From Escherichia coli (lineage in GTDB: Bacteria; Pseudomonadota; Gammaproteobacteria; Enterobacterales; Enterobacteriaceae): 64,000 bases of DNA. Positions 1-20,072 of the stretch are shown piece by piece. The DNA is taken from assembly GCF_045037415.1 (NCBI RefSeq), contig NZ_CP173438.1; one strand, written 5' to 3'. Both the position numbers and the translations under genes were made by a program. The notes beneath the pieces are model-generated. The model did not search any database. It saw only the letters and a list, made by a program, of their open reading frames with translations, and was not told the DNA's origin. Numbering within the stretch: the stretch's first letter is position 1; each line of letters begins with the position of its first letter.

Positions 1-307
<307 letters not shown>

Positions 308-327
308 TTATAAAAATTGCTAAAATG

Positions 328-341
328 CTAAACCGGTTTAG
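328..341. promoter_or_regulatory. perfect 14-bp palindrome CTAAACCGGTTTAG; candidate LacI/GalR-type (ScrR) operator upstream of scrY
   Basis: Exact dyad symmetry with central CG, about 45 bp upstream of the scrY ATG; related copies at 387-400 and 1391-1420. Confidence 0.45.
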
Positions 342-386
342 GTGTTGATAATAAAGCTGACTTTTTAGCCAGAGCAATTATTTTCG

Positions 387-400
387 CTAAACCGATTTAG
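387..400. promoter_or_regulatory. near-palindrome CTAAACCGATTTAG; second candidate ScrR operator
   Basis: One-mismatch copy of the 328-341 palindrome in the scrK-scrY intergenic region. Confidence 0.4.
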
Positions 401-450
401 TAAATGTGACAGGCACGACAAATCGGGTTACAGATACAACAGCAGGATCA

Positions 451-1371
451 CTATTGTGAAGGGAGATCGTGTTGTCGGGGTAAGGCGGTCATCGCGCCTT
501 TAGCCGTGGTCGCCAGAGCACCACAAATCTGAGCTTGTGCAATGATTCGTTCAAGCTGTCTGGTATTTGTTGGTATTCCAGAATCAGCCAGACCGGCAAG
601 TAATCCAGCGACAAAAGCATCTCCTGCCCCGGTCGTATCGACGACAGAAACAGGTTTGGCGGGATAGTGGATAAACTGCCCCTGAAAATACACAAGTACG
701 CCATTTTTTCCTTGTGTAATAAGCAATAAAGTCAACGGATAACGTTGTACTAATGAATATGCGCCTTGCTGAACCTGGCTTTCGTCACTGATGAATAACA
801 ACTCTTCTTCGGACAATTTAGCGATATTCGCCAGCGAAAGCGCACGATCAAGGTATTTCCTTAACAGCGCTTCACTCTGCCAGAGATCGCTGCGGATATT
901 GGGATCAAAACTGATGTTTCCGCCAGCCTGACGTATTTTCTCCATAGCCAGAAATGCGGTACTTCGGGAAGGTTCTGCACTGAGCGCAATGGAACAAAGA
1001 TGGAGCCATTCACCCGGCCCAAATGCAGGAAGGTCATCAGGTTGTAAAAAAAGATCGGCACTTGGGCGTACCATAAAGGTAAAGTTTCTTTCTCCTTGCT
1101 CATCAAGTCCTACAGCCACAATTGAGGTGCGATGTTGAGGATCAAGAGACATATAACGTGTATCAACATTTTCTGTACTCAGTGTTTGATACATAAAGCG
1201 ACCGAAAGGATCATCGCCAACTTTGCCAATAAAGGCACTTTTCCCCCCCAGCCTTGCGATACCGACTGCAACATTAGCAGGCGCCCCACCAGGACACTGT
1301 AGTAGTCTCCCCTGGCTTTCGGGTAATAAATCAACAACCGCATCACCGAGTACCCATACTCTTGTGCTCAT
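451..1371 (-). CDS. scrK: fructokinase, PfkB/ribokinase family (ScrK-like)
   Basis: 306-aa ORF; PfkB signatures (GGAPANVAVG near N-terminus, DTTGAGDAFVAGLL near C-terminus); strong resemblance to enterobacterial ScrK over the whole length. Confidence 0.85.
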   Translation of the reverse strand: MSTRVWVLGDAVVDLLPESQGRLLQCPGGAPANVAVGIARLGGKSAFIGKVGDDPFGRFMYQTLSTENVDTRYMSLDPQHRTSIVAVGLDEQGERNFTFMVRPSADLFLQPDDLPAFGPGEWLHLCSIALSAEPSRSTAFLAMEKIRQAGGNISFDPNIRSDLWQSEALLRKYLDRALSLANIAKLSEEELLFISDESQVQQGAYSLVQRYPLTLLLITQGKNGVLVYFQGQFIHYPAKPVSVVDTTGAGDAFVAGLLAGLADSGIPTNTRQLERIIAQAQICGALATTAKGAMTALPRQHDLPSQ

Positions 1372-16526: not shown

Positions 16527-16585
16527 TCAGCCCGGTCTTGTAGGCCTGATAAGACGTGTGAGCGTTGCATCAGGCAAGGCAAACA
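16527..16585. repeat. REP element between cysI and cysH
   Basis: TAGGCCTGATAAGACG...GCATCAGGC palindromic unit. Confidence 0.7.
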
Positions 16586-16596
16586 GTGAGGAACTT

Positions 16597-17331
16597 ATGT
16601 CCAAACTCGATCTAAACGCCCTGAACGAACTGCCAAAGGTAGACCGGATTCTGGCGCTGGCGGAAACTAACGCCCAACTGGAAAAACTGGACGCTGAAGG
16701 CCGCGTAGCCTGGGCGCTGGATAATCTGCCCGGTGAATATGTACTTTCTTCCAGCTTTGGCATTCAGGCGGCGGTGAGCCTGCATCTGGTGAATCAGATT
16801 CGCCCGGATATTCCAGTGATCCTCACCGATACCGGCTATCTGTTCCCGGAAACCTACCGCTTTATTGACGAGTTAACGGACAAACTCAAGCTCAACCTGA
16901 AAGTGTATCGTGCTACCGAAAGCGCCGCCTGGCAGGAAGCACGCTACGGCAAACTGTGGGAGCAGGGCGTTGAAGGCATTGAAAAGTACAATGACATCAA
17001 CAAAGTCGAACCGATGAACCGGGCGCTGAAAGAACTGAATGCGCAAACCTGGTTTGCTGGCCTGCGCCGTGAACAATCCGGCAGCCGCGCCAATTTACCG
17101 GTGCTGGCAATTCAGCGTGGCGTATTTAAAGTGCTGCCGATTATCGACTGGGATAACCGAACTATTTATCAGTACCTGCAAAAACATGGCCTGAAATATC
17201 ACCCATTATGGGATGAAGGATATTTATCGGTGGGCGATACCCATACAACCCGTAAATGGGAACCCGGCATGGCGGAAGAAGAAACGCGTTTCTTTGGCTT
17301 AAAAAGGGAATGTGGATTACACGAAGGGTAA
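16597..17331 (+). CDS. cysH: phosphoadenosine phosphosulfate (PAPS) reductase
   Basis: 244 aa from the ATG at 16597 ([14 protein letters not shown]...); C-terminal ECGLH motif. Confidence 0.95.
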
Positions 17332-17348
17332 ATATTGCCGGATAAATT

Positions 17349-17389
17349 AAACGCCTCTGTCAGAAATGATGGAGGCGTTTTTATTTTTT
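17349..17389 (+). terminator. intrinsic terminator downstream of cysH
   Basis: Stem AAACGCCTC / GAGGCGTTT followed by a T-rich run TTTATTTTTTG. Confidence 0.6.
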
Positions 17390-17399
17390 GCGAGCAGCA

Positions 17400-17800
17400 T
17401 TCCGGCATTTAAAGGTGAACATCGCAGGGAAAATTAACAGGTATAGAATGGCATTGGGTGCTTGAGGCTGTCTGGCGTTAAGCATTCGCAAGGTTCCAGA
17501 TGGACAAAAGCCCCAGGCGATATTTCTATCAACCTGAGGCTCGCGTTCGAACGTAGCAATTCGGATGTTAGTCTCTTCTTTGCAGGGAGGCAAGACATGC
17601 TGACAAAATATGCCCTTGTGGCAATCATCGTACTGTGTTGTACAGTACTGGGATTCACGTTGATGGTAGGCGACTCGTTGTGTGAGTTGAGTATCAGAGA
17701 ACGTGGTATGGAGTTTAAGGCAGTTCTCGCTTACGAATCGAAGAAGTAGCCACCACGCGGGGTAAAACCCCGCGTACTGAATTGTGATGGTTTGGCCTCC
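17400..17800 (+). other. hok/sok-type type I toxin-antitoxin locus (antisense Sok RNA expected on the minus strand over the hok leader; not mapped)
   Basis: Contains a Hok-family ORF with an in-frame upstream mok-like extension and a 3' GC hairpin (CGCGGGG-TAAAA-CCCCGCG, 17756-17774). Confidence 0.55.
17597..17749 (+). CDS. hokX: Hok/Gef-family membrane toxin (50 aa)
   Basis: [50 protein letters not shown]: one transmembrane helix plus conserved SLCE...AYES Hok signature; symbol assigned because the hok homologue next to cysH is, as I recall, the hokX/sokX locus. Confidence 0.65.
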
Positions 17801-17874
17801 TGCACCCCTTTTTTATACTCTGTTTCTGGTGGCATTGATTTCCTGCAGGCAAGGGAGTAATCATTTCAAACCCA

Positions 17875-18912
17875 TTAAGATGCCTTCGCCAGCTCCTTCA
17901 CCAACGGTAGCATTATCCGCATAACATCACGGCAGCGACGTTCTATTCTTCCAGGAAGTGCCTTATCAATATGCTGTTGATTATCCAGTCTTACGTCATG
18001 CCAGCTATTTCCCGCAGGGAATGCGGCTGTTTTTGCTCGTTGCTGATAACCATCCTTATTGCCAAGATTCCAGTTAGTCGCTTCCACCGAAAGTACAGCA
18101 ATACCGGCTTTGTCGAATATTTCTGCGTCATTACAACACCCGGTGCCTTTCGGATAGTTTTTATTCAAACCTGGATTTGTGGTGGCGGCAATTCCATGGC
18201 TGCGGGCAATTGCCAGCGCCCGGTCGCGCGTTAATTTCCTTACTGCTTCAGGGGTTTTTACACCGCTGTTGAAATACAATTTATCGCCAACAATTAAGTT
18301 ATCGAGATTAATCACCAGCAGCGTATTTTTCTTTTCGGTGTCACTCATCCGCTTGAGTAAATTCTCAGCGCCTAATTTTCCTTCCTCTTCGCCGCTGGTC
18401 GCCACAAATCGAATACCATACTCGGTAGGCGTATTTTTCAGGCGCTCGGCCAGTTCCAGCATGACACCTAAACCTGCGGCGTTATCATCCATTCCTTGTA
18501 ACGTCAGCCCGCCGAGATTGGCATCGGCGTCAGCATCGCTCAGCGGGGCGTAAGTATCCAGATGCGCCATAATGATGATCTGCTGCGGCGTTTTGCCTTC
18601 ATGAGCGGCAATCACCGTACTTCCCGTCACGTTATGCCAGCTCTTGCGATTATCGCGGGCGGTATAAATATACCGACTATTAAATGTCCGAATATCACTG
18701 CGATAACCCATTTGCTGAAACTGTTGGCGAATATAATCGGCAGATAACATTTCTGCAGGAGTTCCGGTCATGCGTCCCGGAAAGAAAGTAGCAATATGTC
18801 GTGCCTGGGTATTAGCAAAATCGCCAGGTTTAGGTGACGAGGCGTGTACGGGGAGAATAAAGCATACGCCGAGCGCCAGGGCAGCGGTACGGTGGCGCAA
18901 TGCGGAAAACAT
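17875..18912 (-). CDS. iap: alkaline phosphatase isozyme conversion aminopeptidase (M28 family)
   Basis: 345-aa ORF with signal peptide; position between cysH and cysD. Confidence 0.9.
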   Translation of the reverse strand: MFSALRHRTAALALGVCFILPVHASSPKPGDFANTQARHIATFFPGRMTGTPAEMLSADYIRQQFQQMGYRSDIRTFNSRYIYTARDNRKSWHNVTGSTVIAAHEGKTPQQIIIMAHLDTYAPLSDADADANLGGLTLQGMDDNAAGLGVMLELAERLKNTPTEYGIRFVATSGEEEGKLGAENLLKRMSDTEKKNTLLVINLDNLIVGDKLYFNSGVKTPEAVRKLTRDRALAIARSHGIAATTNPGLNKNYPKGTGCCNDAEIFDKAGIAVLSVEATNWNLGNKDGYQQRAKTAAFPAGNSWHDVRLDNQQHIDKALPGRIERRCRDVMRIMLPLVKELAKAS

Positions 18913-19163
18913 AGTGAGTCCTTAAATACCATGCAAATTTTTTTACCGCCATAGTATGAAACTGCCGCTGCGCTAAAACAATTTCAAATCTTCCTAAACG
19001 CCCGAAATCCGGTGCCTTAAGCACTTTTTGATATTAGCTTTGCCAAATCGTTATTCCGTTAAGGAACTACTCATTCTAATTGGTAATTTCATTCGTTCTC
19101 TTACGCTCCCTATAGTCGAAACATCTGATGGCAAGAAAATAGCGGTATTGCAAAGGAACGGTT

Positions 19164-20072
19164 ATGGATCAAAAACGACTTACCCACCTGCGGCAACTGG
19201 AGGCGGAAAGCATCCACATTATTCGCGAGGTGGCGGCAGAATTCTCAAATCCGGTGATGCTCTACTCTATCGGTAAAGATTCCAGCGTCATGCTGCATCT
19301 GGCGCGCAAGGCGTTTTATCCAGGTACGCTGCCTTTCCCGTTGCTGCATGTCGATACCGGCTGGAAATTCCGCGAGATGTATGAGTTCCGCGATCGTACG
19401 GCTAAAGCCTACGGCTGCGAGCTGCTGGTGCATAAAAACCCGGAAGGCGTAGCGATGGGGATTAATCCATTCGTTCATGGCAGCGCGAAACATACCGATA
19501 TTATGAAAACTGAAGGCCTGAAACAGGCGCTGAACAAATACGGTTTTGATGCCGCCTTCGGTGGTGCGCGCCGCGACGAAGAGAAATCCCGCGCTAAAGA
19601 GCGAATCTACTCTTTCCGTGACCGCTTCCATCGCTGGGATCCGAAAAATCAGCGCCCGGAGCTGTGGCACAACTACAACGGGCAAATTAACAAAGGCGAA
19701 AGCATCCGCGTCTTCCCGCTCTCTAACTGGACCGAGCAGGATATCTGGCAATACATCTGGCTGGAAAATATTGACATTGTTCCACTGTATCTCGCTGCGG
19801 AACGTCCGGTTCTGGAACGCGACGGTATGTTGATGATGATTGATGACAACCGTATCGACCTGCAACCGGGCGAAGTGATTAAAAAACGGATGGTGCGTTT
19901 CCGTACGCTGGGCTGCTGGCCGCTGACCGGCGCGGTGGAGTCAAACGCACAAACACTGCCGGAGATCATCGAAGAGATGCTGGTTTCCACCACCAGTGAA
20001 CGTCAGGGCCGCGTAATTGACCGCGACCAGGCGGGGTCTATGGAGCTGAAAAAACGTCAGGGGTATTTTTAA
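19164..20072 (+). CDS. cysD: sulfate adenylyltransferase subunit 2
   Basis: 302-aa ORF; PAPS-reductase-like fold; heads the cysDNC operon. Confidence 0.95.

Follow-up and report, generated by a model that had tools for sequence, protein, structure and literature searches.

A probable chromosomal hokX/sokX toxin-antitoxin locus in a CRISPR-I-E-free cysH-iap interval of Escherichia coli

Introduction

In the stretch of Escherichia coli DNA analysed here (64,000 nucleotides, hereafter the window), the genes cysH and iap are separated by only 543 bp (positions 17332-17874). The corresponding interval of K-12 MG1655 measures 9,959 bp and contains a CRISPR array, cas2-cas3 and, adjoining cysH, sokX, as a sequence-only reading of this DNA had stated. 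That reading had also described a hok/sok-type locus as lying in the window where K-12 carries its type I-E CRISPR-Cas system.

In the hok/sok system of plasmid R1, the full-length hok mRNA is inert until it is activated by 3' trimming, Sok blocks translation of the upstream frame, and loss of Sok allows Hok to depolarise the membrane. In R1 the upstream frame, mok, is uninterrupted, spans about 70 codons and overlaps hok.

The cas-less cysH-hok/sok-iap arrangement is already known, the locus having been published and its gene named hokX, and PMC3903273, PMC7232551 and PMC12736100 describe the same locus. Almendros et al. 2014 (PMC3903273) sort the CRISPR-I locus into nine arrangements and derive the cas-less arrangement B by deletion; to judge by their text, as in that arrangement, cysH, hok/sok and iap are contiguous in the window, without leader, cas genes or repeats. 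According to PMC12736100, hok and sokX adjoin cysH in 90% of uropathogenic strains and CRISPR-Cas components are absent here in 54% of them. The known hokX/sokX, designated hok-5 in AIEC NRG857c and 'hok sok' of the CRISPR-I locus by Almendros 2014, has the same position adjoining cysH and is the same gene as that of the window, and the cas-less cysH-hok-iap order of NRG857c and of uropathogenic strains, as given in these three papers, is likewise the same.

Results

The cysH-iap interval and its flanks

The complete genome of E. coli AVS0971, which has 9 mismatches to the window over 64,000 positions, was used as the reference annotation. On the basis of open reading frames and this annotation, with alignment used in addition for iap, cysH (PAPS reductase) was placed at 16597-17331 on the plus strand and iap at 17875-18912 on the minus strand, in agreement with the gene ends and the distance of about 540 bp previously read from the sequence. 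The RefSeq order in AVS0971 is cysJ-cysI-cysH, 'Hok/Gef family protein' (17597-17749), iap and cysDNC. Three elements were recognised in the interval: the cysH terminator, an entire hok/sok-type locus and a 48-nt junction. The terminator, which had been correctly recognised in the sequence-only reading, is an intrinsic one on the plus strand (17349-17390), consisting of a hairpin with a 14-bp stem and a 4-nt loop (17349-17380) followed by a T-run. This T-run (17381-17390) holds 2 T more in the window than in seven other aligned alleles. An Rfam match to Spot 42, far under its gathering score, was simply the cysH terminator and was rejected. A REP-like palindrome was observed at 16544-16576, between cysI and cysH; a sub-threshold match to naRNA4 (21.9 bits, gathering score 59.5) corresponded to this palindrome and was also set aside.

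Comparison with K-12 and cas-positive loci

Comparison with K-12 MG1655 established that the short interval is not shared by K-12. Positions 17000-17599 align with K-12 from cysH through sokX, the last aligned base being the G of the hok ATG (17599), and homology with both K-12 and cas-positive genomes restarts at 17864, 11 nt beyond the iap stop codon. K-12, which carries the cas-E2 variant and a sokX remnant, has the same flanks and retains the hok leader as far as the hok ATG, along with sokX and its putative promoter, but lacks the hok coding sequence and 3' UTR (window 17600-17815) as well as the 48-nt junction, and has 9.7 kb of cas3-cas2 and array instead. In the cas-E1 arrangement of O157:H7 Sakai and most non-B2 strains, cysH, its terminator and the complete hok/sok unit as far as the T-run are the same as in the window. 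Beyond the hok terminator, Sakai continues with cas3-cas2 and an array, whereas the window has only 48 nt there.

Of 5426 complete E. coli genomes, 4220 (78%) have the hok segment 17600-17815, mostly directly beside cas3. Most matches stopped 216 nt into the 264-nt query, at the T-run of the hok transcript, with cas3 coming next; O157:H7 Sakai, ET474 and 2017-02-2CC all have hok directly beside cas3. As the segment is found in 78% of genomes, and as the same Hok accession occurs in cas-less and cas-positive strains, hok/sok is a normal resident of the cysH side rather than a substitute for CRISPR-Cas at its site. The earlier statement that hok/sok lies where K-12 has CRISPR-Cas thus stands for the CRISPR-free state of the interval but not for any replacement of one element by the other, hok usually being found beside cas3. 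K-12 belongs to the minority that lost the hok coding sequence and 3' UTR, as a separate event. The window is distinguished only by 17816-17863.

The cas-less arrangement, scored as at least 80% of window 17000-19200 recovered in one piece, was found in 1172 of the 5426 complete E. coli genomes, bearing out the suggestion that a CRISPR-Cas-free configuration with an intact hok is seen in other E. coli lineages. Among them are CFT073, ATCC 25922 and an O25b:H4-ST131 strain, which are members of phylogroup B2.

Other configurations were also encountered at this site. In ET474 (locus L004, 12214-14910), cas3 faces the other way from casA-cas2 and runs towards hok, with its stop codon overlapping the hok T-run. 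In E. coli SCPM-O-B-8794 (locus L014, 8034-8499), a 5' fragment of cas3 is joined to about eight residual I-E repeats by iap and the other cas genes are missing, which is a different partial loss. A 3.3-kb contig of a metagenome-assembled genome labelled Bacillota bacterium (JAEWTL010000007.1, locus L019) is 98.8% identical to K-12 cas3 and carries the sokX junction in its K-12 form; contamination of that assembly by E. coli K-12 is almost certainly the explanation.

The 48-nt junction

Genome comparison showed the junction DNA (17816-17863) to be specific to the CRISPR-free allele, with borders at 17815/17816 and 17863/17864. Diverse cas-less E. coli, with flanks of 95.7-100% identity, have it unchanged, and it was found in 1120 of 5426 genomes, in 1119 of these at an identity of at least 99%. 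When the junction was compared (blastn-short, E<=10) with the cas-positive loci of Sakai, ET474, 2017-02-2CC, K-12, SCPM-O-B-8794, MOD1-EC7003 and P. vendiensis, only chance 8-14-mers were returned. It bears a weak resemblance (21/27) to the last spacer of an IS-interrupted locus (L005), and is conserved in species without that spacer. The possibility of an iap terminator within the junction was rejected, its minus-strand fold being less stable than those of shuffled sequences (z=+1.88).

A cross-species scan was carried out on one genome per species, with the 5' end of the hok mRNA as the query. E. whittamii has the same cas-less arrangement, with a junction identical at 43/48 positions, and Escherichia sp. 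E1V33 has the cas-less arrangement with a more diverged junction. In Pseudocitrobacter faecalis, cysH, hok and iap follow one another without the junction filler, and Escherichia sp. MOD1-EC7003 and P. vendiensis have the hok-cas3 arrangement. An exact 22-mer of the junction gave 0 matches with one genome per species because of substitutions inside the 22-mer in E. whittamii and E1V33. Since two further Escherichia species have a homologous junction, with substitutions, the empty allele seems to be old; from these comparisons, both the empty and the occupied alleles appear to be old and to cross species boundaries. In P. faecalis (locus L013, 1290-3627), the window is matched at 94% identity by the hok mRNA and at 92% by cysH, but at only 75% by the adjacent iap, reflecting either fast evolution of iap or exchange of a cysH-hok segment between genera.

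The competing explanation that survives best is that the junction is the scar of a recent deletion in B2, in which a cas-E1-type locus (O157:H7-like) lost everything from the hok terminator to iap. Deletion of the region between IG6 and IG3, leading from arrangement A to arrangement B, is proposed in PMC3903273, and it would fit the position of both borders, which fall where the CRISPR-Cas module of cas-positive genomes ends, as well as the occurrence of I-E systems at the same site in other Escherichia species and in Pseudocitrobacter. However, the 48 nt match nothing in the cas-positive loci listed above. The junction is also confined to about as many genomes as the cas-less arrangement itself (1120 vs 1172), and its homologues in E. 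whittamii (43/48) and E1V33 imply that the allele either predates B2 or crossed species. On this comparison, simple deletion from the cas-E1 arrangement is not an obvious origin for the empty allele, and a recent B2 deletion is considered unlikely, while still deserving more weight than the other alternatives considered below.

The hok gene and its RNAs

The toxin gene, hok (hokX), occupies 17597-17749 on the plus strand and encodes 50 amino acids. Its product matched Pfam PF01848 (HOK_GEF) with E=6.3e-10 over model positions 1-42 of 42, and is annotated in AVS0971 as 'Hok/Gef family protein' (WP_000956458.1), so that the Hok-family toxin ORF previously noted in the interval could be confirmed. 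The NCBIfam HokA and Hok models also matched, but under their curated cut-offs. WP_000956458.1 is one identical accession in cas-less and cas-positive strains. Across 13 Hok homologues from 12 genomes of Escherichia species and Pseudocitrobacter, 57 nucleotide differences were counted against 9 amino-acid differences; as the protein is nearly invariant while synonymous sites vary, the alignment gives a clear indication of purifying selection on Hok.

The hok mRNA is predicted to comprise about 359 nt on the plus strand (17456-17814), from a conserved 5' end, GGGUGCUUGAGG, to a T-run at 17809-17814, as judged from the start of the Rfam match, the fold and the end of homology. Rfam family RF01794 (sok) matched 17456-17612 at 104 bits (gathering score 59), and homology of the hok unit with cas-positive genomes stops at 17813-17815. 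The predicted fold of the mRNA (359-360 nt) has an energy of -132.6 kcal/mol (z=-4.05) and a helix closing the 5' end onto the 3' end, in which a tac-like element (17456-17469, plus strand) pairs with an fbi-like fold-back element, GGCCUCCUGCACCC (17794-17807, plus strand). This pairing was predicted in the MFE, centroid and five-allele consensus folds; its two variable pairs among the five alleles change from G-C to G-U only, and covariation support is weak. In a second long-range helix, between 17556-17564 and 17777-17785, the same five-allele consensus contains one compensatory change from G-C to A-U. A putative hok promoter was read by eye, with a -10 element, TAGAAT (17444-17449, plus strand), located 7 nt before the mRNA 5' end and a weak or unclear -35 element.

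The 3' UTR of hok contains a GC hairpin with a 9-bp stem, CGCGGGGUAAAACCCCGCG (17753-17779, plus strand), identified by folding the 3' region of the mRNA. A GC hairpin had been counted as an item of its own in the earlier description of the interval. It is indeed present at 17753-17779, but belongs to the 3' region of the hok mRNA and is no separate feature. In both interrupted loci examined (L003 and L005), this hairpin is the insertion site of IS421, the break falling at 17770. IS421, which is IS186-like, is inserted at GGGG(N5-6)CCCC with duplication of about 12 bp (17759-17770), at about 14771 in L003 and at about 12172 and 13510 in L005. These insertions agree with the GC-rich IS186 hot spots at the IG2-IG3 boundary reported by Almendros 2014 (PMC3903273). 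The hok locus of E. coli B and of some sampled strains (L003, L005) is thus IS-interrupted at the GC hairpin, whereas that of the window is uninterrupted; they otherwise differ in nothing substantive.

The Sok antisense RNA, a homologue of sokX, was mapped to 17500-17557 on the minus strand (58 nt) by aligning the K-12 sokX annotation and by folding, its predicted structure being a hairpin preceded by a single-stranded 5' tail of 11 nt and followed by UUUU (z=-3.0). A putative sok promoter on the minus strand (17565-17593), also found by eye, comprises a -35 element, TTGCCT (17588-17593), a 17-nt spacer and a -10 element, TAACAT (17565-17570), both written as reverse complements; it matches the consensus at 8/12 positions, under the scan threshold. 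A consensus promoter scan listed neither the hok nor the sok promoter, both of which we infer from reading the sequence. Two plus-strand matches that the scan did report, one inside hok and one at 17792-17819, were judged not meaningful. For strain EDL933, RNA-seq and ribosome profiling list reads over sok_15/sokX. Among the 17 loci aligned, there was no case of sok having been removed while hok stayed.

The upstream reading frame

Upstream of hok, a mok-like frame is present in two halves, both identified by ORF reading on the plus strand: an 18-codon ORF (17500-17556), which coincides with the Sok-complementary stretch, and a 12-codon ORF (17565-17603), the TGA of which overlaps the hok ATG. 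The ATG of the 12-codon ORF is invariant in 8 alleles, and translational coupling from this ORF to hok is possible. The stop after 18 codons is written as CGT-AGC in the window, Sakai and E. whittamii, and as CCTAAGC in ET474, E1V33 and P. faecalis. A fused frame (CCCAAAC), reading to the TGA on the hok ATG, was found only in VCSW7, strain 744 and K-12 among the alleles sampled. The fused frame has 34 codons in VCSW7 and strain 744 and 48 codons in K-12, from which hok is deleted; fused frames end on the hok ATG or continue past it. A 95-aa ORF starting at TTG 17462, which would extend Hok in frame at its N-terminus, was also considered as mok and rejected, as it has no canonical start codon inside the Sok target.

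This interruption bears on a second alternative, namely that the hok ORF is intact but translationally silent, the locus being a harmless remnant that no longer kills. The window frame running from 17500 does stop, at TAG 17554-17556, where those of VCSW7, strain 744 and K-12 continue to the TGA on the hok ATG, and the hok promoter looks weak. Chromosomal hok genes are, moreover, not always functional, the five hok loci of K-12 having been reported inactive (Pedersen and Gerdes 1999, as cited in PMC7232551). The split 18-codon state is, however, that of the majority, and is also found in E. whittamii, Escherichia sp. E1V33, MOD1-EC7003 and Pseudocitrobacter. The low ratio of amino-acid to nucleotide differences among the 13 Hok homologues, the 94% identity of the whole mRNA between genera in comparison with 75% for the neighbouring iap, and the overlap of the 12-codon ORF with the hok ATG also speak against this alternative. 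Because the split frame is the commoner state and is common to several species, we take it to be the normal design, in which coupling may differ from that of R1 or may not work at all. A silent relic is accordingly regarded as rather improbable, somewhat more so than the recent deletion.

Search for CRISPR repeats and cas genes

The sequence-only reading had found no repeat array and no cas-like ORF in the interval, and both repeat searches and family searches agreed. A repeat search for a direct-repeat array (29-nt repeats, 32-nt spacers) found none in the interval, and cas3, cse1-cas6e, cas1 and cas2 were absent both from the 543 bp and from the annotation of the same region in the near-identical genome. 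The four other small ORFs tested had no family match in NCBIfam. With up to 3 mismatches allowed, the I-E repeat consensus had 0 matches in the whole 64-kb window, while 16 repeats were found in a cas-positive locus used as the positive control. Degenerate repeats were also sought within 17332-17874, as their presence would have spoken against a CRISPR-free interval. When the K-12 consensus and two variants of the terminal repeat were used for scans with and without gaps, nothing rose above chance; the best gapped match in the interval scored 10 against a null of 9.25 +/- 1.13, a score reached by 37% of equal-sized chunks of the window. A degenerate orphan repeat or leader remnant hidden in the interval is therefore highly improbable. 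Although the 3' half of the I-E repeat (CCAGCGGGGATAAACC) has a look-alike in the hok 3' hairpin CCACGCGGGGTAAAACC and the junction contains the palindrome CCTGCAGG, 37% of the window chunks match as well as the interval does, the search allowing up to 3 mismatches found nothing while its positive control worked, and the hairpin is a piece of the hok mRNA that cas-positive genomes have just as well.

The queE-ygcE site, which is the second I-E array site of K-12 (PMC12736100 and PMC3903273), was also considered. A carbohydrate porin and a kinase lie beside ygcE at the left end of the window (1-1371). In AVS0971 (locus L023, 8368-14846), the region from queE to ygcE holds a sucrose-type regulon consisting of a LacI-family regulator, sucrose-6-phosphate hydrolase, PTS IIBC, carbohydrate porin and kinase; PMC12736100 reports sucrose genes at the ygcE-queE site in 47% of uropathogenic strains. 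No I-E repeat was found in the queE-ygcE region, as covered by the left end of the window and by AVS0971. No cas-F genes were found in the clpA-serW-infA region of AVS0971, a result that applies to the window strain only via the near-identity of the two genomes. The same region of AVS0971, outside the window (locus L022, 38343-38685), contains an orphan I-F mini-array with one perfect 28-nt repeat, a truncated repeat and a single 32-nt spacer. As I-E is missing from both sites and the nearest genome is without cas-F, the window strain is probably without active CRISPR immunity.

Discussion

The interval is very likely to represent a chromosomal hokX/sokX type I toxin-antitoxin locus in a CRISPR-I-E-free, B2-typical cysH-iap haplotype. 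This explanation draws together the observed gene content, the family matches, the predicted folds and the borders and distribution of the haplotype. The CRISPR-Cas module, which in most E. coli lies between the hok terminator and iap, is absent, and the 48-nt junction appears in its stead.

The working model for hokX/sokX is taken from hok/sok (parB) of plasmid R1, which the locus resembles in its Hok/Gef toxin, the tail and terminator hairpin of Sok, the RF01794 leader and the predicted tac/fbi-like fold-back; it differs in being chromosomal and in having its upstream frame split into 18 + 12 codons. By this analogy, a weak promoter would give rise to a stable hok mRNA of about 359 nt, pairing of its 5' end (17456-17469) with its 3' end (17794-17807) would keep it translationally inert, and slow trimming at the 3' end would open the leader. 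A stronger antisense promoter would supply the short Sok RNA (17557 to 17500), which would pair with the leader over the 18-codon ORF, so blocking the upstream translation that hok needs, and the duplex would be cleaved by RNase III. Should the supply of Sok stop, Hok, a membrane-depolarising peptide of 50 amino acids, would be made. We infer the promoters, transcript ends, RNA processing and translational coupling of this scheme, and the toxicity of Hok and its neutralisation by Sok in the window strain would likewise follow from the analogy with R1. What post-segregational killing could achieve from a chromosome is not obvious.

A more speculative proposal concerns the history of the site. 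The cas-less allele might be an ancient empty-site haplotype that is spread across Escherichia species and did not arise by deletion from cas-E1, with hok/sok constraining the borders of the island and acting as a selfish anchor that shapes immune-island turnover. The borders lie at the end of the hok transcript in the cas-less allele and right after the hok ATG in K-12. We consider this proposal doubtful as a whole, giving it less credence than either a recent deletion or a silent hok; if true, it would mean that a toxin-antitoxin module shapes the turnover of a neighbouring CRISPR-Cas island.

To the known locus, the present analysis makes two modest additions, namely the private 48-nt junction that crosses species and the polymorphism of the mok-like frame. 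Beyond correct annotation the importance of the finding is small, since the arrangement is an ordinary one, found in about one in five sequenced E. coli genomes. It places the strain among these roughly 20%, of B2 type, that are without type I-E at cysH-iap, and it provides a clean natural case of an uninterrupted chromosomal hok/sok that is usable for testing chromosomal hok function.
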